A stretch of DNA of 57,779 bases from Candidatus Desulfaltia bathyphila (GTDB taxonomy: Bacteria > Desulfobacterota > Desulfobacteria > Desulfobacterales > ETH-SRB1): assembly GCA_014381545.1 (NCBI GenBank), contig JACNLL010000026.1:1-57779 (forward strand). Direction: 5' to 3'. Below the pieces are notes generated by a model that saw only the letters and a list, made by a program, of their open reading frames with translations, made no database searches and was not told where the DNA came from. Shown here piece by piece: positions 15,118 through 53,626 of the stretch; within the stretch, counting starts at the first letter, position 1, and every line of letters starts with the position of its first letter. Made by a program: the position numbers and the translations under genes.

Positions 15118-16368
15118 TTAGTGCTTAAAGCTCCTCTGCCCCGTATATACCATTGTAGCATCCGCCTCATTGCATGCCTCAATCGACTGATAGTCGTTTA
15201 CAGATCCTCCAGGCTGAATTACAGCGGAAACACCTTCATTCAGACCCACATCAATACCATCCCTGAATGGAAAAAACGCATCACTGACCATTGCGGAACC
15301 AGGCAGCCCGCCCTTTTCGTCTGCAACTCTGCTGTCAATTTCTGCCTTTTTATCCTTGTCTTTTAATTCATTATAAGGAATTTTATACATCTCAAAACAA
15401 TAACGGTCGGCAAGCTTTCGATATGCCTTATCTCTCGCTATCTCGGCAACCCCTACCCTGTCCTGTTCTCCTGCGCCGATACCAACTGTTACCAGGTCCT
15501 TTACAAAAATAACCGAGTTAGATGTAACTCCTGACTCAACCAGCCATCCAAACAGCATATCATTATATTCCTTCTCGGTCGGCTCACGGTTTATCCTGTA
15601 ATTCTTCCCCTTATATTCGCACTCGGCAATATTAAGATCATCTTTCGACCTGGCAGCAGGCACAAAAGACCACTGAGAGACAATGCCGCCGTCAATAAGA
15701 CTTTTGAATTCTACGAATCTCTGCCCGACAAAATCTGTTAATTTGTCTATGTTTCCTATTCTCACTACCCTGAGGTTTTTCTTCTTTGCAAAAATATCCA
15801 TAACACCAGCTTCAAAATCAGGAGCTACCACAACTTCAGCATATTGTCTGTTAATTGTTTCCGCCGTTGCTTTATCAACAGCTCTGTTTACAGCGATACA
15901 ACCTCCAAATGCAGCAATTCTGTCTGCCATATTGGCCTTAATATAGGCTTTGTCTAAAGAATCGGACTGAGCAACGCCACATGGATTGTTGTGCTTGACA
16001 ATTATAGCGGTTGGCTTGTCCGTAAAATATCTCAGGATATTCAAGGCATTATCAGCATCGGTCAAATTGATTTTGCCGGGATGCTTCCCTGACTGCAACA
16101 ACTCAATGTCAGAAGCCAGATACTGGCCTGGCTGGATTGTTTCGGTTTCACCTAAAATCAGGTTTCCGTTAATCAATTTATACAGGGCTGCTTCCTGACC
16201 GGGATTTTCGCCGTACCTTAAACCTTTTTCAACATTATCTATAGTCCAGGTAACTTTTTCATAAAAAAGAGTCTGCCTTTTATCCTTGTCCACAAAGCTG
16301 ATTTCCATATTAGGCGTAAAATGGTCATCCATGATTGTTTTATACATTTTCTTTAGATCTTCAGCCAT
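15118..16368 (-). CDS. purH: AICAR transformylase-like domain (C-terminal half of a split PurH)
   Basis: LRYGENPGQ.AA, KHNNPCGVA, AFGG, SDAFFPFRDG, QPGGS, RSFKH. Confidence 0.85.
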   Translation of the reverse strand: MAEDLKKMYKTIMDDHFTPNMEISFVDKDKRQTLFYEKVTWTIDNVEKGLRYGENPGQEAALYKLINGNLILGETETIQPGQYLASDIELLQSGKHPGKINLTDADNALNILRYFTDKPTAIIVKHNNPCGVAQSDSLDKAYIKANMADRIAAFGGCIAVNRAVDKATAETINRQYAEVVVAPDFEAGVMDIFAKKKNLRVVRIGNIDKLTDFVGQRFVEFKSLIDGGIVSQWSFVPAARSKDDLNIAECEYKGKNYRINREPTEKEYNDMLFGWLVESGVTSNSVIFVKDLVTVGIGAGEQDRVGVAEIARDKAYRKLADRYCFEMYKIPYNELKDKDKKAEIDSRVADEKGGLPGSAMVSDAFFPFRDGIDVGLNEGVSAVIQPGGSVNDYQSIEACNEADATMVYTGQRSFKH

Positions 16369-16450
16369 TTATATCTCCTAATTGATTTCAAGTAAGCTAA
16401 CCCTAAAGTTAAGGGGTCGCTTTGCTCCATAATTTTAGTCATTTGTAACT

Positions 16451-17128
16451 TTAAAAGGAATAACAAGCCTTTACTTCATCGAAGGTTCTATCACTCAAAT
16501 AGTCTGCGATAAACCGGTCATATACGGCTGTGTGCTCAAAGGCCTTCTGCGCCAGCTCACAGCGTAGCCTCAGAGATAATTGTCCGTTATTTGATTTTAT
16601 CTCTGATACAATAGTTTCGTAGTCAGAAGGGTCAACAACCGGTGCCACTCTTATAAAGTTTTTGGCGGCAGCCCTTATCATGCAGGGGCCGCCTATATCA
16701 ATATTACCCCTGGCCTGTTCAATGGTTATATTATGTTTTGCAATAGTCTCCTTAAAAGGATACAGATTCACTACGACCATATCGATGGGAACAGAATCTG
16801 TTCTCTTCAAATCATTTTTGTGGTATTCATTATATGTTTCCGTAAGAAGACCCAGATATATTTTAAAATCCAAAGTCTTTACAAGCCCACCCTGGGTTTC
16901 GGGCTGCCCCGTGTAATCTGACACCTGTGTCAAGCAGGATGCGGCATCAGAACCAAGTATCTCTTTTATACTACTGTATGTGCCTCCGGTTGAAAAAAAT
17001 TTTAGCTCAGGATTTACTGAAAGCATCTCCGGTATTAGCTTGTCGAGGCCATTTTTGTCTGAAACACTTACAAGTATGTGCTTCACCATGATTAAATCAT
17101 CGATCCTTTCAACAACATTAATACTCAT
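16451..17128 (-). CDS. purH: IMP cyclohydrolase MGS-like domain (N-terminal half of a split PurH)
   Basis: VSVSDK.GL, STGGT, GGLVKTL, VVNLYPF, NIDIGGP.MIRAAAKN. Confidence 0.88.
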   Translation of the reverse strand: MSINVVERIDDLIMVKHILVSVSDKNGLDKLIPEMLSVNPELKFFSTGGTYSSIKEILGSDAASCLTQVSDYTGQPETQGGLVKTLDFKIYLGLLTETYNEYHKNDLKRTDSVPIDMVVVNLYPFKETIAKHNITIEQARGNIDIGGPCMIRAAAKNFIRVAPVVDPSDYETIVSEIKSNNGQLSLRLRCELAQKAFEHTAVYDRFIADYLSDRTFDEVKACYSF

Positions 17129-17478
17129 TATCTCTACCTTGTTCTCTCATATTTTTCTAAACCTTATATAAAAGGAAGAATTCATTCCCACAAAAAATTT
17201 ACAGATATTGCTTTTTACTGTGCATAAGAAATAAACAATCATTTTAGAACCTTAGTGTCTTTGCAACTTTGTGGCTGAACTATTACCATTTATGTAATTT
17301 TTATGTTATTATCCAAATAGTGTCAAGAATTATGTGTAAAAGGGAAAACCGCTTTTTCTATTGTCACGGCCACTTCTTTTTCCAAAATTCCATTTGCAAT
17401 TCGATAAATTTACGCATAGTTTACTCCCATTAACAGAAATTTACAAACTCATTTTTATGTAACATTAACCGACTGTGC

Positions 17479-19080
17479 GTGAGCTTCATGTGTGATCGAA
17501 TTCAAAACAGGACAGGCTGGATAAGACATGTTTCTATCACTCCCCCAACTCTGCAAAATAATACTGCAGATGCTGATCGGCTTATAGGAGAATTAAAAAC
17601 CAGGCTTAATACCGATGCCGTTGATATAGACTTTTATTTATTAAAAAGATTGCCGGATCTTTTAAGAAAATGCGAATATAATGTCGACTGCATCCTTTTC
17701 AAGGATCGGAAAAGGTGGGTTGTTACAGGTATTACGCATTCGCAGGATACAAGTCCCACCTACGGCCTGGCCGTTGATCTCGGCACCACCAGGATTGTCT
17801 TGCGCCTTATAGACCTTTCAACAGGTTTGATTCCGGCCGAAACATCTTTTGACAATCCCCAAATATCCGTGGGACCCGACGTGTTGGCAAGGATACACTT
17901 TGCGGACCAGGATGGAGGGCTGAATAAGCTCAACAAAATGATTGTCGACAGCCTTAATCGAATGATCATAAGGTTGTGCGATTCCTGTAAAATAAAGCCA
18001 TATAACATATATTCCCTTTCTGTGGCAGGCAATACAGCCATGACCCATTTTTTCATGGGTCTTAGTCTTCACTGGATAGTACGTGAACCATATATTCCGG
18101 TTATAAACAGACCCGGGCTTGTAAAAGCAAAAGAGCTGGGAATTAAGGTTAACCCTATGGCCAGAGTTCTGATCTTTCCAAATGTCGGCAGCTATTTTGG
18201 TGGAGACCTGATTGCAGGAATTCTGTTTTCCGGCTTAAACAAAACAGAGGATACAGCCATTTTGGTTGACGTTGGAACAAATGCAGAGGTTGTATTAGGA
18301 AATAGAGACTGGCTTATTGCCTGTGCCGGAGCAGCAGGCCCTGCCCTGGAATGCGGGGTAACCGGGATGGGTATGATGGCGGGCCCGGGTGTGATTGATC
18401 AGGTTGTTATCGATCATGATACTTATAATATTCGATTGCATACCATTGACAACATGCCGCCCAGAGGGATTTGCGGTTCAGGCCTGATAGACCTTGCAGC
18501 CCAGCTTTTTCTTCGCGGTATGATCGACATCAAGGGCAAGTTGGTGCCGTCGATATGCGGCAACAGACTAAAGAAGAAAGATGGTGCCAGGCATCTTGTG
18601 GTGGCGCCTGCAAAAGATTCCGCCACGGGGTCTGACCTTACTATAAGCCAGGCAGACATTAACAGTCTTATCAGATCCAAGGCCGCCATGTATACAATAC
18701 TTGAGACTATTACATCTTCTGCTGGAATCTCTTTTAAGGATCTTTCTACATTTTATGTGGCAGGCGCCTTTGGATCTTTTATCAATCCCAGGTCGGCTAT
18801 ATCTATTGGAATGCTTCCTGATCTGCCGATTGACCGTTACAAATCCCTGGATAACAGCTCTATTGGCGGAGCAACCATGGTGCTTACATCGAGTGAGTGT
18901 TTAGATGAGATCGATAATATCAGAGACCGCATTACTTATCTTGAATTAAACGTAAATCAGGAATTCATGAACAGATTCAGCGCTGCCAGGTTTCTCCCCC
19001 ATACTGATTCCTCGCTTTTTCGCTCGGTGAAGACGTGTGCCCACATCTCCCCTCCACAAAAGCCTTCCGCGGCAGGATAA
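17479..19080 (+). CDS. ASKHA-fold reductive activator of corrinoid proteins (RACo/AcsV-like), lacking the N-terminal [2Fe-2S] domain
   Basis: GLAVDLGTT, NPQ..GPDVLARI, GNTAM, DVGTNAE, AAGPALE, GICGSG, AGAFG. Confidence 0.88.
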   Translation: MSFMCDRIQNRTGWIRHVSITPPTLQNNTADADRLIGELKTRLNTDAVDIDFYLLKRLPDLLRKCEYNVDCILFKDRKRWVVTGITHSQDTSPTYGLAVDLGTTRIVLRLIDLSTGLIPAETSFDNPQISVGPDVLARIHFADQDGGLNKLNKMIVDSLNRMIIRLCDSCKIKPYNIYSLSVAGNTAMTHFFMGLSLHWIVREPYIPVINRPGLVKAKELGIKVNPMARVLIFPNVGSYFGGDLIAGILFSGLNKTEDTAILVDVGTNAEVVLGNRDWLIACAGAAGPALECGVTGMGMMAGPGVIDQVVIDHDTYNIRLHTIDNMPPRGICGSGLIDLAAQLFLRGMIDIKGKLVPSICGNRLKKKDGARHLVVAPAKDSATGSDLTISQADINSLIRSKAAMYTILETITSSAGISFKDLSTFYVAGAFGSFINPRSAISIGMLPDLPIDRYKSLDNSSIGGATMVLTSSECLDEIDNIRDRITYLELNVNQEFMNRFSAARFLPHTDSSLFRSVKTCAHISPPQKPSAAG

Positions 19081-19114
19081 CCTTGAACCACAATATGTTG
19101 CGTCACTTTTTCTC

Positions 19115-19144
19115 TTGACACACATTCAATTACCTTTATATACT
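19115..19144 (+). promoter_or_regulatory. Putative sigma70 promoter of the CBS-ACT gene
   Basis: TTGACA (19115) N18 TATACT (19139). Confidence 0.4.
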
Positions 19145-19230
19145 TAATTTTTATACAAATTATTTTGATTTTTTATGAAATATGCAGACCGGCGGGGTCA
19201 GAGCCCCTTACAAGCAATGGAGGAAATATT

Positions 19231-19935
19231 ATGTTAGTCAAAGGATGGATGTCAAGTGATGTAATTTCAGTCGAGGAAGAAACTTCTATGATGAAGGCTT
19301 CCGTCCTTATGAAGGAAAACAATATTCGTCGTCTCCCTGTAGTCAGAAAGGGAAAATTAGTTGGGCTTGTTACTGATACGGATTTAAAAGAGGCTTCTCC
19401 ATCAAAGGCGACCACTCTGGATATCTATGAAATAAGTTATCTGTTGTCTGAGATTAAAGTCAAAGAATTGATGTCAAAAAACGTGACCTATGTGAAACCT
19501 GATGAGACTATAGAATTTGCAGCGGTCTTGATGCTTGAAAACAAGATTTCAGGACTCCCGGTAATAAACGATCAACAAAATTTGATCGGTGTTATAACGG
19601 AAACAGATATATTCAAAGCTTTAATCCATATTACCGGAGTATACAACGGCGATACACAGTTTGCTCTCTGCCTGAGAGATAAACCGGGATCAGTGCATGA
19701 AGTTGCGGATGTCATCCGCAACATGGGCGGCCGGGTCGTGAGTATACTCACAAGCTATGACTTAGCGGATGAAGGGTACAGAAACGTCTATTTTCGAATT
19801 CGACATATGGAACATGATCGGCTGGTAAAACTGGTCAATATTCTGGAAGAAAAATTCACAGTACTATATACAGTCAAAGAATCCTTGGAAAAGGTTGCAG
19901 ATAGGCGGTTGCATAAAGATTATGAATCCTCGTGA
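19231..19935 (+). CDS. CBS-pair plus ACT domain protein (AcuB-like)
   Basis: IRRLPVV, LKEASPSKATTLDIYE, KISGLPV, DKPGS; GGAGG RBS before the ATG at 19231. Confidence 0.88.
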   Translation: MLVKGWMSSDVISVEEETSMMKASVLMKENNIRRLPVVRKGKLVGLVTDTDLKEASPSKATTLDIYEISYLLSEIKVKELMSKNVTYVKPDETIEFAAVLMLENKISGLPVINDQQNLIGVITETDIFKALIHITGVYNGDTQFALCLRDKPGSVHEVADVIRNMGGRVVSILTSYDLADEGYRNVYFRIRHMEHDRLVKLVNILEEKFTVLYTVKESLEKVADRRLHKDYESS

Positions 19936-20674
19936 TCGCATCCTTTATTCTCTCGATTGCCAGAACTGCATCGCCCCCGGCATCAAACGGCGCCTGCTCA
20001 TTGATATCTGCCTGTATCAGTTTATCATCATACGGAATTGCGCCGATTACAGGAATTCCGAGTCTGTCCAGTTTTGCGCTGATTGCGTCAATATCGCGTT
20101 CGCTCGCTCTATTGATTACGGCAGCCAGTCTTCCGATTCCGATCTTTTTACTTAATTTCTGTATCCGTGCCGCTGTTTCGATTGATCTGGTTCCGGGCTC
20201 GACCACCACAATCATCAGATCAACCCCGCTAGCGGTTCCGCGCCCGAGATGCTCAATGCCGGCTTCCATATCAAGGATCACAATACTCTGTTCCCGAAGC
20301 AGCACATGACGCAGCAGCGCACGCAGCAACGAGGATGCAGGGCACATACATCCTGATCCTCCTTTGTCAATGGTTCCCATTGTGAGCATGGAAACACCAT
20401 GCTCGGTCACGCCAAATCGACAAGCGATGTCATCCACCTTCGGGTTCAGTTTGAAGATACCTCCTGTGTCTGTGCCTGCTCGTTCTTCGATTAGTTTTTT
20501 GTGTTCTGTGAGCGGAGCAGGTGGGTTTTTGATACCGATGGCAGATGCCAGGTTCATATCAGGATCGGCATCGATTGCAAGAACTGCAAAGCCGTCTGCT
20601 GCGAAGATGCGGGCGAGCGTGCCTGCAAGTGTGGTCTTGCCGACGCCGCCTTTGCCTGTGATTGCGATTTTCAT
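19874..20674 (-). CDS. cooC: CO dehydrogenase/ACS nickel-insertion ATPase (CooC/AcsF)
   Basis: GKGGVGKTT, IDADPDMNL, GGSGCMCP, DMEAGIEHLGRGT, VVEP. Confidence 0.93.
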   Translation of the reverse strand: MKIAITGKGGVGKTTLAGTLARIFAADGFAVLAIDADPDMNLASAIGIKNPPAPLTEHKKLIEERAGTDTGGIFKLNPKVDDIACRFGVTEHGVSMLTMGTIDKGGSGCMCPASSLLRALLRHVLLREQSIVILDMEAGIEHLGRGTASGVDLMIVVVEPGTRSIETAARIQKLSKKIGIGRLAAVINRASERDIDAISAKLDRLGIPVIGAIPYDDKLIQADINEQAPFDAGGDAVLAIERIKDAITRIHNLYATAYLQPFPRIL

Positions 20675-20727
20675 TGTTGCTCCTTTGGGATGTTAGAGAC
20701 TCGCTTTTTTGTGAGCTAAAAGCTGTC

Positions 20728-20760
20728 GAAGATTCCCTGTAGCTTGCTACAGGGTTCTTC
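20728..20760. repeat. Palindrome (IS200/IS605-end or REP-like) upstream of cooC
   Basis: CCCTGTAGC-TT-GCTACAGGG perfect 9-bp stem extended by GAAGA/TCTTC. Confidence 0.6.
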
Positions 20761-20918
20761 AATTGTGTGTCAAGAGAAAAAGCAACGAGTAACCAGCAAC
20801 GAGTAATATAAAAAAAATGAATAATTTATACTTGACTAAATGAAAGATACCATATTATAAAGATTTTAAATAAATATGATTCAGTAAATTATTGGAATAC
20901 AGAAAAAAGGAGGGAATT

Positions 20919-22682
20919 ATGGTTCTCGATCCAACCAAATATAAAGACTGGGAAATTGCCGAATATGCTGAAAAGAATATGAAAACGGTTTATCAATTGG
21001 GAGAGGAGCTTGGGTTGGAGAAAGATGAACTCCTTCCACATGGACATTATGTGGCAAAAGTCGATTTTGCAAAAGTTTTAAAACGCCTGAAAGATAAACC
21101 GGACGGTAAATATATTGATGTCACCGCCATTACTCCCACTCCGCTTGGAGAAGGCAAAAGCACTTCTGCCATGGGATTGGTGCCCGGGCTTGGCAAGCGT
21201 GGAAAACGGGTTATCGGCGCTATCCGTCAACCTTCCGGCGGTCCGACTATGAATATAAAGGGGAGCGCCGCAGGCGGCGGCCTGGCCCAGTGTATCCCTC
21301 TTACCCCGTTTTCATTAGGGCTTACAGGCGATATTAATGCCATTATGAATGCGCATAATCTGGCCATGGTAGCTTTGACAGCCAGAATGCAGCATGAAAA
21401 CAACTATTCTGATGAGATACTGGCGAAAAAGAATCTGAAACGGCTCGATATTAATCCCAAAAATGTGGAAATGGGGTGGATTATCGATTTTTGCGCTCAA
21501 TCGCTTCGGAATATTATCATAGGTCTTGGCGGAAAGATGGACGGTTTCCCCATGCAGTCTAAATTCGGGATTGCCGTAAGCTCGGAGATTATGGCTATTC
21601 TGGCGGTTGCTACCGACCTGAAAGATATGCGTGAACGGATGGGAAAGATCGTGGTTGCCTATAATAAAAAAGGCGATCCTGTTACTACAGCAGACCTTGA
21701 GGTTGACGGCGCCATGACTGCATGGATGGTGGAAGCGCTCAACCCGAATCTCCTCCAGACTTTAGAAGGGCAGCCGGTCTTTGTGCACGCAGGGCCGTTT
21801 GCAAATATCGCAATAGGCCAGTCATCTATTATAGCGGACAGGGTTGGATTAAAACTTGCAGACTACAATGTTACGGAAAGTGGTTTTGGAGCTGACATCG
21901 GGTTTGAAAAATTCTGGAACTTAAAGTGTCGTTTTAGTGGTTTGAAACCGCATTGCGCTGTAGTAGTGGCAACTATTCGCGCATTAAAATGTCATGGTGG
22001 CGGGCCTCCTCTGCCTCCGGGGAAACCAATGGATCCGGCTTATCTTGAAGAGCATGTGGACTGGGTGGAAAATGGTTGCGAAAATTTAACTCACCATATC
22101 CGAACCGTTAAAAAGGCGGGAATCAACCCTGTGGTCTGCATCAATTCCTTCTATACCGATACCAAAGATGAAATAGCAGCGGTTCGCAGGTCGGCAGAAG
22201 CCGCGGGCGCCCGCGTTGCCGTTTCCGAACATTGGCTTAAAGGTGGTGACGGGGCTCTAGAATTTGCCGATGCGGTTATCGATGCGTGTGAGGAGGAAAA
22301 TGACTTTCACTTTCTTTATGATCTTGAGACTCCATTGCGCAAGAAGATTGAATTGATTGCTAAAGAGGTATATGGCGCGGACGGTGTAAGTTATACCCAG
22401 GAAGCCGAAGCCAAGGCAAAGAGAATTGAACAGGATCCGGAACTGGCAAAATTGGGTACATGTATGGTCAAAACCCATCTAAGTCTTTCTCACGATCCGG
22501 TTAAAAAAGGTGTGCCGAAAGACTGGACACTCCCTGTTCGGGATATCTTGACGTATAAAGGGGCGGGATTCGTGGTGCCCGTGGCAGGGGCAATCAGCCT
22601 GATGCCGGGAACGGCTTCTGATCCGGCCTATCGGCGTATTGATGTTGATGTGGAGACCGGAAAAGTAAAGGGGTTGTTTTAA
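20919..22682 (+). CDS. fhs: Formate--tetrahydrofolate ligase
   Basis: [60 protein letters not shown]; AGGAGG RBS. Confidence 0.97.
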
Positions 22683-22695
22683 GGAAATTAAGATA

Positions 22696-23574
22696 ATGTC
22701 TGCAAAGATTATCAGCGGCACTGAAATCGCCAAACAGATACGGGAAGAACTGAAAAAAGAGATAGTGGAATTAAAGGAAAGACACGGTGTAACTCCGGGG
22801 TTGGCCACAGTTCTTGTGGGTGACGATCCAGCCTCCAAGGTATATGTGGGCCAAAAGGAGAAGTCGTGTAGCAATTTGGGGATATATTCGGAAAGAATCG
22901 ATTTGTCTGGAAATATCTCGGAGGAAAAGCTTCTCTTGCTAATTGAGAAATTGAACAAGGATTCACGGATTCACGGGATATTGGTTCAGCTCCCTCTTCC
23001 TAAACAGATTAATGAATCCCGCGTTATATGTGCCATTGATCCCGCTAAAGATGTGGATGGTTTCCATCCGGTAAATATAGGAAAGATGGTGATCGGGGAA
23101 AAGTGTTTTCTCCCCTGTACCCCTCATGGGATACTGGAGCTTCTGGCCCGTTCCGGTGTGCAAACAGAAGGCGCCGAGGTCGTAGTTGTGGGCAGGAGCA
23201 ACATTGTTGGGAAACCTGTCCTTAATCTGATGCTCCAAAAACGACCAGCAGGCAATGCAACGGTAACGTTGTGCCATACAAAAACAAAAGACTTGGCCTT
23301 CCACACAAAGCGAGCAGACATCCTGATAGTAGCTACCGGTTATCCCAAGACAGTTACAGGGGACATGGTAAAAGAGGGGGTTGTGGTTATCGATGTGGGG
23401 GTAAATCGGATAGGAAAGACTCCGGAAGGCAAAGCAATTTTAGTAGGCGACGTAGACTTTGAAAGTGTAAAAGAAAAAGCCGCCGCCATTACGCCGGTAC
23501 CCGGCGGCGTCGGCCCCATGACCATCGTCATGCTGATGAAGAATACGATACAAGCGGCCAAAAATACAATATAA
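22696..23574 (+). CDS. folD: Methylene-THF dehydrogenase/cyclohydrolase
   Basis: GILVQLPLP, KDVDGFHP, PCTP.G, GRSNIVGKP, TPVPGGVGPMT. Confidence 0.97.
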   Translation: MSAKIISGTEIAKQIREELKKEIVELKERHGVTPGLATVLVGDDPASKVYVGQKEKSCSNLGIYSERIDLSGNISEEKLLLLIEKLNKDSRIHGILVQLPLPKQINESRVICAIDPAKDVDGFHPVNIGKMVIGEKCFLPCTPHGILELLARSGVQTEGAEVVVVGRSNIVGKPVLNLMLQKRPAGNATVTLCHTKTKDLAFHTKRADILIVATGYPKTVTGDMVKEGVVVIDVGVNRIGKTPEGKAILVGDVDFESVKEKAAAITPVPGGVGPMTIVMLMKNTIQAAKNTI

Positions 23575-23589
23575 GCTAATGAAAAATTA

Positions 23590-23661
23590 AACCGCGAAGG
23601 GGCACGAAGGTTAGGAAGAGTGCTTTTATAATTTCTTTGTGTTCTTCGTGCTCTTCGTGGT
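23590..23661. repeat. Inverted 9-mer array element
   Basis: accgcgaag/ggcacgaag ... ctttgtgtt cttcgtgct cttcgtggt. Confidence 0.65.
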
Positions 23662-23738
23662 GAAAAACATGATAAAAAAGCTCCGATTATGACTGTTCAA
23701 AACCTAAGCAGCTATGAGCTAATCTTGGAGGATTGATT

Positions 23739-25697
23739 ATGGGATCAAGAAGATCTCCTGTTGGCGTGGCGCCCCGTTGCCTCGGTATTGATTGTGAGGG
23801 AAGCACCTGTGTTGCAAAGCAGGCCGAGGGCAAGGGGGTTGTTACCTACATCCAACGGATGAACAAAAGCGCTATTGAGCCTTGTCTTTTCGGTCAGGGG
23901 GGCACATGTTGTCGTAATTGCTCCTTTGGCCCGTGCATGATGATCGAAGATGTTCCGGAATCGATCGGGATCTGCGGGGCTACTCCTGCTACAGTGGCAG
24001 CGCGTAATTTTTGTCGTATGGTTGCTGCAGGGGCGTCTGCACACATGGATCACGCCCTTGAGACAGCAATGGCATTTCTGGCCGCGGCAAAAGGAGAATC
24101 CGAGTATAAAATCAAGGATGAAAAGAAGCTTCGTGCGCTGGCAGAGGTCTTTGAAATAAAGACAAAAGACCGGAACACAAAGGATATTGCTATTGAGCTG
24201 GGTGAAAAGGCATTAGCTGAATTCGGGAAGCAAGAAGGAGGCCTGTACTGCATACGTCGTGCACCTGAAAAGCGGCAAGAAGTATGGAAAAAAATCGGTG
24301 TTGCCCCGCGTGGTATACAGCGGGAAGTGGTAGAAATCATGCATCGGACCCATATGGGGACCGACCAGGATTATCGCAACCTGCTTCTTCAGGCCACCAG
24401 GTGTGCACTGGCAGACGGTTGGGGCGCATCCATGATATCTACCGAACTTCAGGACATCATGTTCGGAACTCCGGTTCCGACTCGGGCGGTGGTCAACCTT
24501 GGTGTTCTTTCCAAAGACGAGGTCAACGTGGTTGTACACGGTCATGAACCGATCCTGTCTGAAGCCATGGTGTTGGTTGCTGAGGATCCGGAGATGATAG
24601 AGGCAGCCAAAAAGGTGGGAGCAAAAGGGATCAATCTGGTCGGTGTCTGCTGTACCGGAAATGAGATCCTCATGCGTCACGGAATCCCTGTTGCAGGGAG
24701 CTTTATCCAGCAGGAGATCGTGCTTGCAACAGGCGCTGTAGAGGTAATGGTAGTAGATGTTCAATGCGTCATGCAGTCTCTTCCTGCTGTGGCCGGGTGT
24801 TTCCATACTGAGATGATTACCACGTCTGACCGGGCAAAAATTCCTGGCGCAAAACATATAGAGGTACATCATCACAATGCATCGGAAGCAGCCAGGCAGA
24901 TAGTCCAACGCGCTATTGACAGGTATCCGCAGCGAGGGGAGATCAATATCCCACACAATAAGATGGATGTGGTGGTCGGCTTCAGTCATGAGACAATCAA
25001 TCATATATTGGGTGGCGCCTTCCGTGCGTCGTACCGTCCCTTGAATGACAATATCATCAATGGTCGTATCCGGGGGGTCGGAGCAGTTGTAGGATGTGAC
25101 AGCGTGCGCGTACGTTCCGGGCACGTGCATACCACTGTGGTAAAAGAGTTGATAGCCAACAATGTCCTGGTTCTTGTCACAGGCTGTGCTGCTACTGCAT
25201 GTGGACGTGCAGGACTTTTAACGCCTGAGGCTGCAGAGCTGGCAGGGCCGGGCTTGAGAGAGGTATGTGAGACCGTGGGTATGCCCCCGGTATTGCACAT
25301 GGGATCATGTGTGGACAACAGCCGGATCCTGATCGCTGCGACAGAGATTGTCCGTGAGGGGGGGCTTGGCGACGATATTTACCAGGTGCCTGCGGCCGGT
25401 TGTGCGCCGGAGTGGATGAGTGAAAAGGCGATATCTATTGGACATTATTTTGTTGCAAGTGGCGTTTTTGTTGTATTTGGTCGCACCTTTCCAACAACTG
25501 GAAGCAAGGTTGTGACCGATTTTCTGTTCAGTGAAATGGAAGAGCTGTACGGCGGAATGTGGGCGGTTGAATCCGATCCAATAAAGATGGCGCAACTGAT
25601 GATCGAGCGTATAGAGAAAGGGCGAGATGCCCTCGGTATCCAGGAGAAGAAGAAAAGAGTCCTCTATGACATGGCCATGAGGCGTGAGCTGGAATAA
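23739..25697 (+). CDS. cooS: Anaerobic Ni-CO dehydrogenase catalytic subunit
   Basis: PCLFG..GTCCRNC..GPC (D/B clusters), VHGHEP, GVCCTGNE, VDVQC, TGCAA, HMGSCVDNSR, SEKA. Confidence 0.96.
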   Translation: MGSRRSPVGVAPRCLGIDCEGSTCVAKQAEGKGVVTYIQRMNKSAIEPCLFGQGGTCCRNCSFGPCMMIEDVPESIGICGATPATVAARNFCRMVAAGASAHMDHALETAMAFLAAAKGESEYKIKDEKKLRALAEVFEIKTKDRNTKDIAIELGEKALAEFGKQEGGLYCIRRAPEKRQEVWKKIGVAPRGIQREVVEIMHRTHMGTDQDYRNLLLQATRCALADGWGASMISTELQDIMFGTPVPTRAVVNLGVLSKDEVNVVVHGHEPILSEAMVLVAEDPEMIEAAKKVGAKGINLVGVCCTGNEILMRHGIPVAGSFIQQEIVLATGAVEVMVVDVQCVMQSLPAVAGCFHTEMITTSDRAKIPGAKHIEVHHHNASEAARQIVQRAIDRYPQRGEINIPHNKMDVVVGFSHETINHILGGAFRASYRPLNDNIINGRIRGVGAVVGCDSVRVRSGHVHTTVVKELIANNVLVLVTGCAATACGRAGLLTPEAAELAGPGLREVCETVGMPPVLHMGSCVDNSRILIAATEIVREGGLGDDIYQVPAAGCAPEWMSEKAISIGHYFVASGVFVVFGRTFPTTGSKVVTDFLFSEMEELYGGMWAVESDPIKMAQLMIERIEKGRDALGIQEKKKRVLYDMAMRRELE

Positions 25698-25717
25698 GTG
25701 GCTAAATAGTTACAAAT

Positions 25718-28700
25718 ATGAAAGAAAGTAAAACGACAAAAAAAGGTTCCGTACTCGTTGTGGGCGGCGGGGTGGCCGGCGTTCAGGCGGCGCTCGACCT
25801 TGCCGATCTGGGTTACTATGTCTACCTTGTCGAAAAATCAGCTTCGATCGGCGGGGCTATGGCCCGGCTCGACAAGACCTTTCCCACAAATGACTGTTCC
25901 ATTTGTATCCTGGCGCCCAAGCTGGTTGAGGCCGGCAGGTCACCGAACATAAAGATTATAACAAAAGCGACTCTGGCATCCGTGGACGGAGAGGCGGGCA
26001 ACTTCACTGCCGAAGTTCACTGTGAGCCCCGATACATCAACGAAGAACTGTGTACTGCCTGCGGCATGTGCACCATGTACTGTCCCATAGTTATTCCTGA
26101 CGCTTACAATGAGGGCTTTACCGTAACAAAAAATCCTCATATGGACTATCCTCAGGCTGTTCCTGCGAGTTTCTATATCGATCCAAAGGAGTGCCTTTTT
26201 GTCAACAATCAGACCTGCCGGATATGCGTATCTACCTGTCAGGCCCAGGCGATCGACCTTGATGCAAAGGAGGAGACGCTTGACTTAGCCGTAGGCGCTG
26301 TAATACTTGCCCCGGGTTTCGGCTCGCTGAGTGAAGATATACTGAGTCGTTTTGGTTACGGTTCCTACCCCAATGTACTTACCGGTTTCGAGTTTGAAAG
26401 GATGATGTGCGCTTCTGGTCCATCCAACGGGGAGATCCTTCGGCCATCAGATGGAAAGCATCCAAAACGTATTGCCATTTTACAGTGCGTCGGTTCAAGA
26501 GATGTAACGTGCGGCAACGGGTACTGTTCATCGGTTTGCTGTATGTATGCCGTAAAGGAGGCCACGGTCGTGAAAGAACATGACCCTGATCTTGAAATTG
26601 TTATCTTCTATATGGAGATGCGGACTCAAGGTAAGGGATTTGACGCTGCTCGCCAAAGGGCCGAAAAAGAGTATGGTCTTCGATTTGTCCGGGCAAGGGT
26701 TGCCGGTGTCCGGGAAAACGGCAAAAACTTAAGGATTCCTTATGTAAATGAGAAGGGAGAGCACATAGCCGAAGATTTTGATATGGTGATCCTGGCTCAG
26801 GGCCTTGAGTCACCCACTGATGCTGAACCACTGGCATCTGCCGCTGGAATCGATCTCAATCACTATGATTTTTGCAAGACGGGTAACTTTTCACCGCTTG
26901 AGACAACCAGGCCGGGGATTTTTGTAGCCGGTGCTTTCCAGGGCCCAAAGGATATCCCGGATAGTGTAACTCAGGCATGTGGCGCGGCCGCTCTTGCCGC
27001 AGAGCTCCTGCGGGATGTTCGTGGAACCAGTGCAGTGAAGAAAGAATATCCGGCTGAAATCGAGATAGAAGCAAAACCGCGGATCGGTGTGCTTGTCTGT
27101 CACTGCGGAATCAACATCGGTGGCGTGGTGGATGTGCCGGCAGTGAAGGAGTATGCCTCTACACTCGATAATGTAGTATTTTGTGATAGAAATCCGTATA
27201 GTTGCTCGCAGGATACGCAAGTTGCAATCAGAGAAAAGATCAAAGAATATAAATTGAACAGGATAGTGGTTGCTGCCTGTACCCCCCGTACTCATGAACC
27301 CCTATTCCAGGAAACCCTGAGAGATGCAGGCTTGAACCGTTCTTTATTTGAAATGGTTAATATAAGGGATCAGTGTTCATGGGTGCATATGCATGAACCG
27401 GCAGAAGCAACGGCCAAGGCTAAAGAGCTTGTAAGGATGGCAGTGGCAAAGGCAAACCTCCTTAAGCCCCTTGTTGAACAGACCGTTCCGGTTATCCCAA
27501 AGGCACTTGTTGTCGGTGGGGGTGTCTCCGGTATGACCGCAGCTTTGAGTATTGCGGAGCAGGGGTTTGAGTGTTTTCTTGTAGAAAAAGCCGATCGACT
27601 TGGCGGAAATCTCGACAATCTTGTTTTTACCCTTTCCGGGGACGATCCGCATGCACTTCTCGAGCAACTCAAAAAGAAGATAGAGCAAGAACCACTTATA
27701 CATGCCTATACTAATTCAACTGTTGAAAACATATCCGGGTATGTGGGGAATTTTACCACGTCAATCAACTCCGGCTCTAAAACTGAGACTGTGGAACATG
27801 GCGTTATAATTATAGCCACCGGCGGCAGGCCATATCAGCCTACACAATATCTTTATGGAAAATCAAAGCAAGTGCTCACACAGCTTGAATTGGAAAAGAT
27901 AATCTCTTCTGATGTTGAGGTAACAAAGATACAAGAAATCGTTATGATTCAATGCGTGGGATCACGTGGACAAGACCTTGCCTATTGCAGCAAGATATGC
28001 TGCATGCAGGCGGTTAAAAACGCCTTGAAGATACTGGAGTTAAATTCACGTGCCACTGTATATATTCTTTACAGGGACATGCGAACCTATGGGTTTGCGG
28101 AAGACTACTACAGAAAGGCCAGAGAAAAAGGTGTAATCTTCATCCACTATGAAAAGGATGCTCTCCCTGAAGTTACCGAAGAAGGCGGAAAGGTTAAGAT
28201 TGAATTTTTGGATCCCTTGCTTGATGAAAAGGTAGCCATTAAACCGGATTTGCTGGCATTGAGCGTAGGGATTGTGCCACATGATGTGGAACAACTGGCA
28301 AAGGATCTCAAGGTTCCTCTTACCGGCGATAAGTTTTTCCTGGAAGCTCATGCCAAGCTTCGCCCGGTAGAATTCTCTGTAAGCGGGGTCTACCTGTGTG
28401 GGCTGGCGCATTCCCCAAAACCTATCGATGAATCGATTGCACAGGCAAAGGCTGCGGCATCAAAAGCCGGCGCCTCGCTGGCAAAGGGATTTGTATCGGT
28501 GGAACCGATTGTCTCGGTAGTTAACACCGATGTCTGTATCGGCTGCGGCATCTGTGAGAGTCTCTGCCCATATAGTGCGATCAGGATAATCAGGGTGGGA
28601 AAAAGGAAAAAAGCCGAGACGATTTCAGCTTCATGCAAGGGGTGCGGTGTATGCGCCTCACATTGCCCAACATTTGCCATATCAATGGGGGGCTTCACTA

Positions 28701-28744
28701 ATGAAGAGATAATGGCCCAGATAAGGGCGTTTGGTGGAAATTAG
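25718..28744 (+). CDS. hdrA: Heterodisulfide reductase subunit A, double FAD-domain form (1008 aa)
   Basis: [16 protein letters not shown], two QCVGSR..YCS..CC motifs, [27 protein letters not shown]-terminal 2x[4Fe-4S]. Confidence 0.93.
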
Positions 28745-28755
28745 GAGATAAAACT

Positions 28756-29544
28756 ATGAAATCACAAGTTACGCTTACCACTCTTTACAAGATGAAGGAA
28801 AAAGGTGAAAAAATAGTTGCTCTTACAGCCTATGATTATCCATTTGCAAAGATAGTTAATGATTCAGGAGTACATATGATCCTTGTAGGGGATTCAGTAG
28901 GAATGGTGATTCAAGGAAAATCGAGCACCCTGCCGGTTACAATGGATGAAATGATATACCATACCTGCATTGTGTCAAAAGCCGCCGGAAATGCAATGAT
29001 TGTCGGTGACATGCCGTTTATGTCTTACCAGACAAGCATAGAAGATGCAATTGCCAATGCAGGACGTTTTCTTAAAGAAGCAGGCGCTGCTGCAGTCAAG
29101 CTGGAGGGAGGAAGAGCCGTCAGTGAAACAATAAAAGCAATTTCAGGAGCTGGAATTCCGGTACAGGCCCACATAGGCCTTACACCGCAATCTGTTCACC
29201 AGATGGGAGGCTACAGGGTTCAGCGCAATGAAGAACAGCTCATGGCAGATGCCCTTGAGATAGAATCCGCCGGAGCCTTTTCCGTTGTTTTAGAAGGTAT
29301 CCCATCCGAAATTTCAGAAAAGATAACTAAAGCGCTTGCCATACCGACAATAGGAATAGGAGCGGGTCCACATTGCGACGGGCAGATACTTGTGCTGCAC
29401 GACCTTTTAGGGTTAAATGACAGGCATCTGCCAAAATTCGTAAAGCAATACGCCAATCTGCTTGATGATGCAAAAACCGGAATAAAACAGTATATAGAGG
29501 AAGTGCAGGCAGGTAAATTTCCCGCCAAAAAGCATTGTTATTGA
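28756..29544 (+). CDS. panB: 3-methyl-2-oxobutanoate (ketopantoate) hydroxymethyltransferase
   Basis: [50 protein letters not shown]. Confidence 0.96.
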
Positions 29545-29547
29545 AAT

Positions 29548-30426
29548 ATGAAACCATCTTTTGCCATTATAGGATGCGGAAAGGTCGGCACTGCGCTGGG
29601 GAAATTTCTTGCAAAGGCCGGCTATAAACCAGCCGGGTTTGCCAGTAAAAGCCTTTCGTCTGCCGAGAGGGCTGCTGAAATCAGCGGTTCTGATAATTGC
29701 AGCCGGATTCCCTGGGAAATAACAAGAAAGGCGGATATCGTTTTTATAACAACACCTGACAGCGCTATAGCCGACACGTGCAACAGTATCTCCCTTCATT
29801 CCGGTTTCTGTAAAAATGGTGTGGTACTGCACTGCAGCGGAGCGCTCCCTTCAACCATTCTATCATCTGTAAAAGAGTGTGGCGCTTTTGCGGGGTCAAT
29901 GCATCCTCTCCAGACTTTTGCTTCAGTTGAGATTGAAAAAAATCCTTTTCAGGATATAATAATTTCCCTGGAAGGTGAAAAGGAAGCTGTCAGTATAGCA
30001 AGGAAAATCGCAACCGACCTTGGGGCAACCTGCTTTACAATACAAACAGAGGCCAAAACACTCTATCATGCTTCGGCAGTGGCAGCATCAAACTACCTTG
30101 TAACAGTGCTCGGCCTTTCCTTAAAGCTTATTGAAGCGGCAGGGATATCAGGCGCAGATGCTTTAAAAGCGCTAAAACCACTAATTGAAGGGACGCTTTC
30201 CAACATAGAAAAAGCCGGGATTGACAGAGCGCTTACCGGCCCCATTGTCAGAGGAGATATTGAAACCGTAAAAAAACATTTGGTCCAGATAGGTTTAAAA
30301 ACGCCCGACCTTCTCGACCTTTACAAGACACTGGGCTTTCATACAGTCGATATTGCAATGGCAGGAGGCGGTCTTTCAGAATCATCAGCTCAAAAGTTGA
30401 AAAAGATTACATCGCCTGATTCTTAA
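29548..30426 (+). CDS. Rossmann-like + DUF2520 protein (PanG-type ketopantoate reductase)
   Basis: IIGCGKVG, VLHCSGA, SMHPLQTF, LYHASAVAASNY, ALTGPIVRGD; adjacent to panB. Confidence 0.82.
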   Translation: MKPSFAIIGCGKVGTALGKFLAKAGYKPAGFASKSLSSAERAAEISGSDNCSRIPWEITRKADIVFITTPDSAIADTCNSISLHSGFCKNGVVLHCSGALPSTILSSVKECGAFAGSMHPLQTFASVEIEKNPFQDIIISLEGEKEAVSIARKIATDLGATCFTIQTEAKTLYHASAVAASNYLVTVLGLSLKLIEAAGISGADALKALKPLIEGTLSNIEKAGIDRALTGPIVRGDIETVKKHLVQIGLKTPDLLDLYKTLGFHTVDIAMAGGGLSESSAQKLKKITSPDS

Positions 30427-30453
30427 TGAACTTAGTTCGCTTCGCTCACAAAT

Positions 30454-30566
30454 TAGTCGAGTGGTCGAATAGTCGAGTGGAGAAATAGTCGAGCAGGAAT
30501 TAGTCAACCACTTGACCACTCGACCAATCAGCTACTCGACGACTCGACTATTTAACTACTCGACTA
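30454..30566. repeat. Inverted octamer array element (TAGTCGAG)n ... (CTCGACTA)n
   Basis: Five units of tagtcgag/tggtcgaa followed by ~7 reverse-complement units. Confidence 0.8.
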
Positions 30567-30583
30567 AAGTCAAGGAAAATAAA

Positions 30584-31375
30584 ATGTCTCAAGATTTATT
30601 TAAGCCGAAGATACTCGGTTTTTTATGTAACTGGTGCTGTTATACAGCGGCAGATTCAGCAGGGGTGGCAAGATACCAGTATCCGCCAAACATCAGAGTA
30701 ATCAGAGTAATGTGTTCAGGAAGGATTGATCCTGTCTTTATTCTTGAGGCCTTCTCCTGTGGAGCGGATGGAGTGTTTGTTGGTGGATGCCATCTCGGAG
30801 AATGTCATTACCAGACCGGAAATTATGAGGCCTTGGTAGTTGCGGCGTTAACACGCAAGTTATTGGAAAAAGCCGGACTCTCAACGGAAAGATTTCTTCT
30901 TGAATGGGCATCCGCTGCAGAGGGACCTCGCTTTGTAGAGATTATAACGAATTTCACAAATAAGATCAAAGAACTGGGCCCATTAGGAAAGACGGAAAAG
31001 AAAGATAAAGATGAATTAAGATTAAAAATATTAGCAGCAAAGTCAGCGGCAAAGCAGATGAAATTACGAACCAGGTTTGGAAATCTTGCTAAGGAACTAC
31101 GCAAGGAAGGTGATTATTCCGACAAGATCATTCATGATAAGCTGGGTCAGAAAGTAGCCGGCGTTATAAATACTGAAATTGCAAGACATGAAACATTCCT
31201 TCGGATCCAAAAAGATGGCCCGGTTTCTTTTAATGATCTGGAAAAAAAGATCGGCGCATCCCTTTCAGAAATCGAAAAATATGTCTCTACATTCAGCAAA
31301 AAAGGGTTAATAACGGAATCTGATGGGCAACTATCAGTAACCAGCAACGAGCAACAAGTAACCAGTAACCAGTAA
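30584..31375 (+). CDS. mvhD: MvhD/FlpD [2Fe-2S] subunit with a ~110-aa C-terminal extension
   Basis: GFLCNWCCY.AAD.AG, RVMCSGRID, GADGV..GGCHLGECHY, WASAAEG; ATG at 30584. Confidence 0.88.
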   Translation: MSQDLFKPKILGFLCNWCCYTAADSAGVARYQYPPNIRVIRVMCSGRIDPVFILEAFSCGADGVFVGGCHLGECHYQTGNYEALVVAALTRKLLEKAGLSTERFLLEWASAAEGPRFVEIITNFTNKIKELGPLGKTEKKDKDELRLKILAAKSAAKQMKLRTRFGNLAKELRKEGDYSDKIIHDKLGQKVAGVINTEIARHETFLRIQKDGPVSFNDLEKKIGASLSEIEKYVSTFSKKGLITESDGQLSVTSNEQQVTSNQ

Positions 31376-31382
31376 AAAAATT

Positions 31383-31961
31383 ATGGCAATAGACAGAGAT
31401 GAGTTAGAACCTCGATTCAAATTTGAAGTGGCGGAACTTCCGGAAGGTAAACATGTCAAGGAATGCTACGCGTGCGGCAGTTGTACTGGAACATGTCCGG
31501 TCAGCCAGGTGATCCCGGAATTCGATCCGCGAAAGATCCTTCATATGATCATGCTCGGCCTGAAAAACCGTCTCCTTTCATCCGATTTGATCTGGTATTG
31601 CACAGAATGCCAAACCTGTGAGTTCGTGTGTCCGCAGGATGTGAGCTTCAGCGATGTGATCAAGGCGCTGAGGATCTTGGCCTTGCAGGACGGCTATGTG
31701 GATGCGGAAAGATTGGGTGAAATGGGAAAATTGGCTGTTGTAGACGAAAAACGTTGCGTAGCCTGCCTCACGTGTGTTCGGGTGTGCCCTTTTGGTGTTC
31801 CCTATGTGGGGGATGATAGTGTCGCCCATATTGAACCGGTAAAGTGTGTGGCCTGCGGGATCTGTGTGTCCGAGTGCCCGGCCAAGGCTATTGAATTACA
31901 GACATCTCAAGATGTGAGGCGGTTTGCCTCGTGTGAATTTTTGCTCTCGAGGGAATTATGA
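31383..31961 (+). CDS. hdrC: HdrC-like Fe-S protein fused to a C-terminal 2x[4Fe-4S] ferredoxin
   Basis: CYACGSCTGTCP, PRKI, IWYCTECQTC..VCPQDV; then CVACLTCVRVCP and CVACGICVSECPAKAI. Confidence 0.8.
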   Translation: MAIDRDELEPRFKFEVAELPEGKHVKECYACGSCTGTCPVSQVIPEFDPRKILHMIMLGLKNRLLSSDLIWYCTECQTCEFVCPQDVSFSDVIKALRILALQDGYVDAERLGEMGKLAVVDEKRCVACLTCVRVCPFGVPYVGDDSVAHIEPVKCVACGICVSECPAKAIELQTSQDVRRFASCEFLLSREL

Positions 31962-32377
31962 ATGATGTGAACCAACCGGATATTGTGGCGTTTTGCTGCC
32001 ATTATACCGCCTATGCATGCTCCCAGGATTTGCAGAACTTACCTCAGTTGGGGTTTCCGGAGAATGTGCGACTGGAAATACTGCCCTGCAGCGGCAGGAT
32101 CAGCATAACCAGGCTATTAAAGGCCTTTGAACAGGGCGCAGACGGAATTTACGTTGCCGGATGCAAGGACGATACCTGCCACAATGTAAGAGGGAGTCAG
32201 ATTGCAAAAAAAAGAGTCGATTACGTGAAAGATGTTTTCGACCAATTGAATATAGAACCTGAACGCATAGAGATGTATATGATTTCTCGCGAGCCGAATC
32301 GCGGATTTATTGAAGTAGCCGAAGAGATGACTATGCGGATTAAAAAGTTAGGATCAAGTCCATTAAAGGGGAAATAG
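31958..32377 (+). CDS. mvhD: Second MvhD/FlpD subunit (divergent)
   Basis: VAFCCHY, LPCSGRI, AFEQGADGIYVAGC..TCH..GS, IEPERIEM; ATGA overlap with the upstream gene. Confidence 0.82.
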   Translation: MNDVNQPDIVAFCCHYTAYACSQDLQNLPQLGFPENVRLEILPCSGRISITRLLKAFEQGADGIYVAGCKDDTCHNVRGSQIAKKRVDYVKDVFDQLNIEPERIEMYMISREPNRGFIEVAEEMTMRIKKLGSSPLKGK

Positions 32378-32380
32378 AAT

Positions 32381-33049
32381 ATGATTGTCGGACAGAGAAA
32401 ACCGATCCAGGAAATTATCGGAATGCTGAAAGGGATTAAAAAGATATTAATCCTGGGATGTAGCGGATGTGTGAGCGTCTGTTCCGCCGGAGGAGAAAAG
32501 GAGGTCGAGATCCTTGCCTTGATCCTTCGGATTGACCGCAAAAAAAAAGGAGAACCTGTTGAAACAATGGAAAAGACTCTTGCCCGGCAGTGTGATACGG
32601 AATATCTGGAAGAATTAAAAGGTGAGGCGGGCAACTACGATGCCATTCTATCGATGGCCTGTGGCGTCGGGGTCAATTATTTAGCTGATATGTACCCCAC
32701 AACTCTGGTTTTCCCAGCGCTTAATACCAGTTTTATGGGCGTTTCAGAGGAACAGGGGGTGTGGTCGGAACGGTGCGCGGGCTGCGGCGACTGTGTGCTC
32801 GACAGGACTGGGGGGCTTTGTCCCATTGCCCGGTGTTCAAAACGTTTATTCAATGGCCCATGTGGAGGATCACAGAACGGGAAATGCGAGATTGACCCGA
32901 ATGTCGCCTGCGTGTGGCAGTTGATATATGATCGTTTGAAGGGATTAAATCAATTGGAAAAACTGAAGGAGATCTTTCCCATCAAGGATTGGTCCAGCAG
33001 TCTACACGGCGGTCCCAGAAAGATCGTCAGGGAGGATCTGAAGCTATGA
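32381..33049 (+). CDS. metV: Methylene-THF reductase small subunit (MTHFR_C)
   Basis: GCSGCVSVC..GG, RQCD.EY, MACGVG, CAGCGDC, CPIARCSK..FNGPCGG, CVWQLIY. Confidence 0.9.
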   Translation: MIVGQRKPIQEIIGMLKGIKKILILGCSGCVSVCSAGGEKEVEILALILRIDRKKKGEPVETMEKTLARQCDTEYLEELKGEAGNYDAILSMACGVGVNYLADMYPTTLVFPALNTSFMGVSEEQGVWSERCAGCGDCVLDRTGGLCPIARCSKRLFNGPCGGSQNGKCEIDPNVACVWQLIYDRLKGLNQLEKLKEIFPIKDWSSSLHGGPRKIVREDLKL

Positions 33050-33975: not shown

Positions 33976-33984
33976 TAAAGCGTG

Positions 33985-34161
33985 GAGTGCCTAAAGTGAG
34001 CTAAAGTATATTAAAGTGCCTAAAGTTAAGGTATTCTGCTTATTTTAAAGTAACAAATGATAAATGAGCTAAAGTTTCCTAAATTTTGCTATTTATAATA
34101 TAAAATCAGCTAACGCTGGCAAGCGCTTTCCTTAACTTTAGGCACTTTAGCTCACTTAACT
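33985..34161. repeat. Inverted 9/10-mer array element between metF and acsD
   Basis: TAAAGTGCCTAAAGTTAAGG (34012-34031) is the exact reverse complement of CCTTAACTTTAGGCACTTTA (34130-34149); extra ctaaagt units on both sides. Confidence 0.8.
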
Positions 34162-34178
34162 CAGAGGGGGTAAATAAA

Positions 34179-35135: not shown

Positions 35136-35137
35136 TC

Positions 35138-37342: not shown

Positions 37343-37402
37343 GGGAATTGAGGAATTTAGGGATTGGATGATTAGTCCAATCAATAAGGAGAAGAAACAG
37401 TT

Positions 37403-38749: not shown

Positions 38750-38780
38750 AAACAATTTTGAGCTTTTAATTCTTAATTTT

Positions 38781-38969
38781 GATGGTCTCGTAAAAAGTCT
38801 TTTGTGAACGGCTTTGAGCATTTTGGGAAAAAAGCAATTGAGATGTTCATCGTCAAGAAATGCAAGCTGTTTGAGGCCGTCAGGCCGAGTTCTTGCATTT
38901 TAGATGAACATTTCAATTGCGCCCAAAATGGTCATGAAGTGAACAAAATCGACTTTTTACGAGTTCATC
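38781..38969. mobile_element. MITE-like element with terminal inverted repeats and a 6-bp direct flank (AATTTT)
   Basis: GATGGTCTCGTAAAAAGTC ... GACTTTTTACGAGTTCATC; AATTTT on both sides; interior folds as a long hairpin. Confidence 0.8.
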
Positions 38970-39026
38970 AATTTTAAATTAATTAAAAATTCAACATTTA
39001 ACATTTAACATTGGAGCGAAACGACT

Positions 39027-39911: not shown

Positions 39912-39941
39912 GATTGATGATTGTCAATCAACAATCACAAA

Positions 39942-53594: not shown

Positions 53595-53626
53595 TATAAT
53601 ATTTAAAATTTTGATTGAGGAACAAA

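Follow-up and report, generated by a model that had tools for sequence, protein, structure and literature searches.

Probable replacement of the nickel-insertion gene cooC by a copy of ANME-2c origin in a bacterium of the Desulfobacterales

Introduction

CooC1 of C. hydrogenoformans binds one nickel per dimer through two cysteines, and the nickel loading of several CO dehydrogenases (CODHs) needs CooC, though not that of all, since some mature without it (PMC6006190, available sections). Genes of CODH clusters move horizontally, and ancient inter-domain transfers have been suggested for them (Techtmann et al. 2012, PMC3328121, available sections). In partner bacteria of ANME archaea the gain of cbcBA, pel and oetABI is described (Murali et al. 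2023, PMC10553843, available sections). As told in the available parts of that paper and of an ANME-3 study (PMC12180501), the described gains came from other bacteria or passed from ANME to ANME, unlike the cooC treated here.

The family ETH-SRB1 (Seep-SRB1a, Eth-SRB1, Ca. Desulfaltia) has a large multiheme cytochrome conduit that is said to be absent from the rest of the Desulfobacterales (PMC10553843; bioRxiv 10.1101/2025.02.04.636526; available sections). A published account, available in part, places Ca. Desulfaltia in the same family, reports that two Ca. Desulfaltia genomes have the conduit, and puts forward ANME-1 as the partner.

We analysed a stretch of 57,779 nucleotides, here called the window, from a genome (G000) of 2.07 Mb that is 97% complete with 0.2% contamination and has 42% G+C. 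This genome probably falls within the ETH-SRB1 family, and its genus may be Ca. Desulfaltia. The proteins near cooC in the window carry Desulfobacterales source labels. The comparison set comprises 26 genomes of the host family, 9 in the host genus and 13 in the genus g3; these genomes are kin, and counts across them are not statistically independent. A preliminary description of the window had proposed that its cooC reached the bacterium from Methanosarcinales or an ANME archaeon by xenologous replacement.

Results

The cooC gene is set between a CBS-domain gene and fhs (20919-22682, plus strand) and, as described before, runs on the strand opposite to both.

19231..19935, plus strand: CBS-domain (AcuB-like) gene, bacterial by sequence comparison, convergent on cooC
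19874..20674, minus strand: cooC, CooC1-type nickel-insertion ATPase of probable ANME-2c origin, 266 aa
20630..20656, minus strand: deviant Walker A motif GKGGVGKTT, residues 7-15, from sequence and alignment; motif as in the available part of PMC6006190
20342..20350, minus strand: putative CXC metal-binding motif, Cys109 and Cys111, aligned with Cys112 and Cys114 of C. hydrogenoformans CooC1 (3KJE)

The product is an ordinary member of the CooC1-type family. Its best solved relative is C. hydrogenoformans CooC1 (E 1.5e-43 over residues 1-228), and every one of the 13 aligned rows has Cys109 and Cys111. In CooC1-type proteins such a conserved CXC pair binds Ni/Zn where the two monomers meet. 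All motif segments quoted in the preliminary description occur in the protein and fit the Methanosarcinales rows of the alignment. The last ~15 residues of the G000 protein are read-through after loss of the stop. Among the bacterial copies of archaeal type dN/dS is 0.07–0.28 over 10 pairs, and by these ratios the gene is under purifying selection. No second cooC of CooC1 type was found anywhere in G000; the preliminary description had noted none in the cluster. Contig C20 holds the sole other relative, a CooC2/AcsF-like gene with 33% identity; it falls into a distant separate clade of the tree, and the window CooC groups with CODH-linked CooC.

With CooC of ANME-2c (Ca. Methanogasteraceae) the window CooC shares 79–85% identity, with that of other Methanosarcinales no more than 68%, and with native Desulfobacterales CooC only 45–51%. 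An orthologue is present in 248 of 284 genomes of the Methanosarcinales order; 24 reach 79–85%, followed after a gap by the next at 68%. The best 120 of 8000 scored proteins can be divided into three tiers: 88–94% (Desulfobacteraceae where named), 76–85% (Methanosarcinales/Euryarchaeota) and 64–69% (ANME-2a/b and others). In the second tier, the names given to cluster members are Ca. Methanogaster, ANME-2c ERB4 and Methanogasteraceae. When named genomes were searched, the best four of 80 loci were archaeal and 82–83% identical. Outside the host genus the top matches of the similarity search are those of ANME-2c.

A quick tree was built from 174 rows and a careful tree from 55 rows picked from those 174. 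The bacterial copies form one clade (100/99) inside the ANME-2c clade (100/99), which itself lies inside Methanosarcinales (99/95), and native Desulfobacterales CooC copies form a distant clade (100/99). An AU test on 28 chosen rows rejects a single clade of all Desulfobacterales CooC (p-AU 1.7e-6). Monophyly of ANME-2c without the bacteria is not rejected (p 0.40 with the 28 rows), in agreement with a DNA tree built from 26 rows (p 0.50); the donor is therefore given as ANME-2c or its stem. Unexpected clade placements were also seen for L010 (labelled Nanoarchaeia), L046 (Bathyarchaeia) and P0111 (Nitrospirae).

At the DNA level the similarity is confined to the reading frame.

19933..20674, minus strand: segment of 77–81% DNA similarity to ANME-2c loci (blastn), reaching from near the start codon to the former 3' end

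No blastn match to ANME-2c loci was obtained with the DNA flanking this segment. In the 11 ANME-2c loci examined cooC is a stand-alone gene among archaeal housekeeping genes, with EF-1alpha, S10, proteasome beta and L7Ae as neighbours (judged by eye from translations), and no ANME-2c neighbour gene was co-transferred with it. Top matches, tree placement and AU test bear out the xenologous replacement proposed in the preliminary description, and we put the probability that an inter-domain replacement of ANME-2c origin is real at about 90%. The transfer is not recent, since it is common to several species.

The archaeal type of cooC is present in five of the nine genomes of the host genus (G000, G002, G003, G004 and G006) and as a fragment in G011, which belongs to another genus. 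These six carriers are 85–98% complete (G004 85%, G011 90%), and native cooC was found in none of them, G000 included. No genome among the 26 of the family has both types. Native cooC occurs in 8 of the 13 genomes of g3 and in other Desulfobacterales families. In 16 loci from many families it adjoins a DEAD/DEAH-type helicase, far from the operon; in G000 hisD stands before that helicase in its place. Two sets of 401 genomes, one from the order and one from the class, were searched with the best six or fewer candidates considered per genome. No full-length archaeal-type cooC was found outside the host genus; at E 1e-75 and 1e-76 it was detected in 3/401 and 4/401 genomes, all of the host genus. 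On the rpoB tree of the genus the carriers are scattered, and this points either to an early gain followed by losses or to a block that has spread from species to species. A second bacterial case, an ANME-1-like cooC in a contig labelled Desulfobacteria (L056, 1226-1984), was rejected as a probable misbin with archaeal-looking neighbours. In G011 the first 83 cooC codons lie at a contig end directly behind acsV on the same strand (G011:C143, L187), possibly the original arrangement or else a misbinned contig.

The preliminary description had drawn attention to 35, 26 and 21 G+C in three lines of 60 nt; these counts are correct, and the line with 26/60 equals the genome average of 42% G+C. The whole gene has 51.9% G+C against 42.8 ± 3.8% for 1213 host ORFs (99.6th percentile). 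Its neighbours cooS (52.0%) and acsB (49.5%) are similarly rich, so that G+C alone is weak evidence for transfer. GC3 of the five bacterial copies (0.51–0.53) lies between that of ANME-2c (0.61–0.68) and that of the host (0.42), and the composition is partly ameliorated. As proof the G+C and codon signals are weak, with cooS near: the codon score of cooC is z 3.2 and that of cooS 2.8, and among the 1445 ORFs of a wider set cooC stands 23rd by codon score, the archaeal reference consisting of only 12 genes. Two of the top codon outliers were considered as further ANME-2c genes in G000; with 5 genomes tested for each, neither is ANME-2c-derived. Odd codon use was also seen in a stand-alone GMP synthase B-subunit-like gene, named from its sequence (G000:C78:3461-4420, L256), which is shared within the family at 69–90% and reaches 43% to one genome of the Methanosarcinales order.

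Several elements around cooC bear on its arrival and expression.

19874..19935: tail-to-tail overlap of cooC and the CBS gene, 62 bp; by alignment, a deletion of ~70–90 bp removed the spacer and the cooC stop
20680..20686, minus strand: putative purine-rich ribosome-binding site, in most bacterial copies, absent from four aligned ANME-2c loci
20725..20763: REP-like palindromic host repeat, 39-mer, dispersed in G000 and the genus
20768..20773, minus strand: -35-like hexamer, putative host-type promoter, by consensus match only

The overlap of 62 bp and the lost stop are present as first described. They are found only in G000 and are no mark of transfer: since the two genes have separate stops and no overlap in G003 and G006, the overlap results from a later deletion. 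An insertion scar is ruled out, the deletion post-dating the transfer. The palindrome upstream of cooC is likewise there, but is not the mobile-element end it had been taken for. It is a dispersed host repeat with 18 matches in G000 (at most 5 mismatches), about ten-fold depth in sequencing runs and many copies in G001, G005, G007 and G008, kin without archaeal-type cooC. At the cooC site it is missing in G003, G004 and G006, which instead have about ten bases with a putative -10 box; G002 has a similar insertion in the putative cooC promoter. Transfer by a transposon or insertion sequence was therefore rejected, the palindrome being a host repeat absent here in three carriers and the foreign similarity covering the reading frame only. 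Palindrome and overlap are both later than the transfer. With the repeat in place of the putative -10 box and without its own stop, the G000 copy may be weakened. The motif of the -35-like hexamer also precedes the CBS gene, at 19115-19144. The two promoter-like regions (19106-19144 for the CBS gene, 20758-20782 for cooC) are closely alike and face each other, maybe through shared regulation or a copied promoter.

The cooC region heads a Wood-Ljungdahl cluster with acsV, fhs, folD, cooS, hdrA-mvhD-hdrC-metVF, acsD, acsB, acsC, acsE and fdh.

15118..44051: block of ~29 kb with purH, acsV, the CBS gene, cooC, fhs, folD, cooS, hdrA-metVF, acsDBCE and fdh; absent in G001
17479..19080, plus strand: gene for an AcsV/RACo-like corrinoid activation protein; in G011 immediately followed by archaeal cooC on the same strand
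23733..25697, plus strand: cooS, bacterial, 89–92% identical within the family; the only CODH found in G000 and the likely client of cooC

In G001 the purH-fdh block is missing and pbp4 is directly joined to folE2 (G001:C43:26111-28201, L222). Four of the five carriers in the genus have cooS (G000, G002, G003 and G006) and none of the four non-carriers, save for a scrap of 34 residues in G005. In G004 (85% complete, contig ending in folD) and G011 (90% complete) the search for cooS found none. A more distant fhs-folD-acsD operon without cooS is present in G001, G005 and G009, and its site (window 53615-55064) is empty in G000. It is complete to acsE in G001 (G001:C43:8163-16354, L192) and G009 (G009:C40, L193), with the order fhs-folD-acsD-acsB-acsC-acsE. 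One genus contains two versions of the Wood-Ljungdahl operon, with 78% DNA identity in fhs against 94% in rpoB. A Prismane-family gene was not found in G001 (100% complete), G009, G012 or G013, and the operon of G001 and G009 apparently encodes an acetyl-CoA synthase without CO dehydrogenase. The 29-kb cluster looks relocated. A recent transfer of the operon from g3 is not supported, since the DNA identity of fhs (80–82%) is only a little above that of rpoB (75–77%). Co-transfer of cooS from archaea is not supported either: its relatives are bacterial, with one archaeal-labelled partial match among the best 120 that is a possible misbin.

Compared with the best cooS from most of the other Desulfobacterales families searched, the family cooS reaches only 56–59% identity, and it occupies a long branch of its own. 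Closer relatives at 75–80% exist elsewhere, and cooS may itself have been acquired. In G013 (C54, L220), from genus g2 (rpoB 77% DNA identity to G000), an acsD-acsB-acsC-acsE-fdh block with 85–93% protein identity lies beside folE2 as in G000, a possible case of cross-genus exchange. In the window purH is split into two genes (15118-17128), the second of which comes to 92% with g3, against only 80–83% with the non-carriers in the host genus.

Discussion

The placement of the window cooC within the ANME-2c clade could have come about without a transfer into the bacterium, or by one in the opposite sense. It is extremely improbable that the locus is an assembly chimera or contamination, with an ANME-2c fragment fused at the repeat into a contig of bacterial origin. 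In three near-identical runs all contigs do end at 20725-20763, so that none of these covers cooC to fhs; across four such runs no contig bridges the repeat from cooC to fhs. Misbinned archaeal contigs with cooC also exist (L056). Against this, the three runs, which may be the source of the window itself, each give one contig over 18800-20754 (acsV-CBS-cooC) with no altered letter and a depth equal to that of the fhs contig (93/94, 8.8/8.5 and 104/102). Contigs from two cold-seep runs join the CBS gene to cooC, with 86 extra letters at 19938/19939. The order acsV-CBS-cooC(-)-fhs is repeated in G003 and G006, cooC-fhs in G004 and CBS-cooC in G002, and cooC and fhs stand side by side on single contigs of G003, G004 and G006. 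The copies, moreover, differ among themselves and are partly ameliorated. Of the two junctions singled out in the preliminary description the one at 19.9 kb is joined in contigs and the one at 20.7 kb is unbridged in the near-identical runs; it is the recurrence of the gene order in other species that rules out a chimera. No more credible is the reverse direction, ANME-2c having taken cooC from the bacterial lineage. The joint clade sits on a long branch (0.31–0.37), and the nesting of the bacteria within ANME-2c lacks statistical support. This clade is, however, placed inside Methanosarcinales, where cooC is near-universal, and rooted trees contradict the reversal. In the searches of 401 order and 401 class genomes (best six or fewer candidates each) the gene was confined to the host genus, and bacterial GC3 has moved toward the archaeal value.

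Two further explanations accept the transfer and differ on its donor or its use. According to the first, which is possible though doubtful, the donor was an unsampled Methanosarcinales lineage beside ANME-2c, or the gene came via a virus or a third organism, and the locus is silent on syntrophy. The unsettled branching order inside the ANME-2c clade fits this, as do the lack of a large multiheme cytochrome cluster in G000 and G004 and the retention of the native gene by most g3 genomes, all 13 of which have paired-CXXCH hits. On the other side, all of the 24 closest archaeal genomes stand together, clearly set off from the others, the cytochrome cluster is found in 4/6 carriers against 0/4 non-carriers of the genus, and relatives are present in cold-seep metagenomes. 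This explanation is compatible with the main reading and bears on the ecological reading only. The second, which we regard as unlikely, holds that cooC is a passenger or decaying spare, at least in G000, with CooS maturing alone or via the CooC2/AcsF-like protein. CooC-independent maturation of CODHs is known (PMC6006190, available sections), cooC is on the strand opposite to the operon, and G000 has the repeat in the promoter region, the lost stop and the convergent overlap. Yet frame and motifs are intact, dN/dS of G000 against its four relatives is 0.07–0.23, and within the genus cooC and cooS are retained or lost jointly.

We return to a transferred and probably working archaeal gene. In the mechanism proposed here, the ANME-2c cooC reading frame alone would have been taken up, once, before several species of the genus diverged. 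It would have landed immediately upstream of the Wood-Ljungdahl operon, behind expression signals of host type, replacing a native cooC not found in G000. CooC would bind ATP via the deviant Walker A motif and nickel via two cysteines per monomer of the dimer, and would deliver the nickel to the C-cluster of CooS. Since native cooC lies far from the operon, beside the helicase, a moved or regained operon without it would need a new maturase, and the archaeal cooC was likely kept for this reason. We thus envisage, order of events included, a CODH-bearing operon that was parted from its unlinked native maturase and would have been completed by the archaeal gene. With Walker A and CXC motifs intact and dN/dS at 0.07–0.28, cooC likely matures the only CooS, 3 kb away; judged from sequence, the window CooC would act on the G000 enzyme. 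It is quite likely that ANME-2c cooC stands in for the missing native copy and loads nickel into the only CODH.

How the gene met its recipient is a more tentative matter. Relatives are present in cold-seep and marine-sediment metagenomes, and we infer that contact with the donor took place at seeps and that the family ETH-SRB1 holds ANME-2c partners. At least 20 paired-CXXCH hits were counted in 14 of the 26 family genomes, including the carriers G002, G003, G006 and G011; this mark is missing in G000, G004 and the four non-carriers of the genus. The pattern across the family is in keeping with what is described for ETH-SRB1. In G000 no large electron-transfer cytochromes of OetAB/OmcX type were found (0 PF09699 hits, at most 11 CXXCH per ORF). 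In g3 native cooC lies ~4–15 kb from a large multiheme cytochrome cluster on the same contig in three genomes (G015:C29, G010:C231, G018:C12). A syntrophic partner is a plausible donor, but a simple partner story is opposed by G000 without the conduit and by g3 keeping the native gene. We offer as a possibility, at less than even odds, that a methane-oxidising consortium was the setting in which ANME-2c handed cooC to its bacterial partner. The gene would have completed a mobile Wood-Ljungdahl/CODH island, and this island and the multiheme conduit would jointly mark those members of a Ca. Desulfaltia-like genus that are syntrophic.

If this is true, cooC would serve as a fingerprint, in the genome, of partnership with ANME-2c in the past or today, with an archaeal maturase working on a bacterial CODH. 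The transfer itself gives independent support for testing Ca. Desulfaltia-like bacteria as ANME partners and points to ANME-2c rather than ANME-1. Gene exchange between ANME and their partners is often supposed, and no documented archaea-to-partner case was found in the literature searched. The main text of PMC10553843 does not contain 'cooC', 'from archaea' or 'archaeal origin', and 12 of its 17 supplements are without 'cooC'; the available parts of PMC12180501 and PMC13109099 do not mention this transfer. Nor did a literature search, with subscription journals mostly outside its coverage, give a prior report. Transfer of CODH genes is known as a kind of event. The case is a clean, tree-supported transfer of a single gene, fixed in several species. 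It provides a cross-domain dating constraint, because the ANME-2c lineage must pre-date the divergence of these bacterial species. It also opens a simple biochemical question: can CooC of a methanotrophic archaeon load nickel into a bacterial CooS?

Compared with known systems, the window protein shares the deviant Walker A motif and the two metal-binding cysteines with C. hydrogenoformans CooC1 (PDB 3KJE, 3KJG, 3KJH, 3KJI). It differs in belonging to the Methanosarcinales branch, in being encoded opposite to the operon and in having ~15 extra C-terminal residues, and is a predicted ATPase. Native Desulfobacterales CooC is of the same family with the same motifs and likely the same role, but is only 45–51% identical, forms a separate clade and is encoded at another locus, beside the helicase. 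ANME-2c CooC falls in the same clade as the window copy, with 79–85% protein and 77–81% DNA identity. Its client is presumably an archaeal enzyme of CdhA type. The ANME-2c gene stands alone, whereas the window cooC adjoins a bacterial fhs-folD-cooS-acs operon, behind putative host-type signals.
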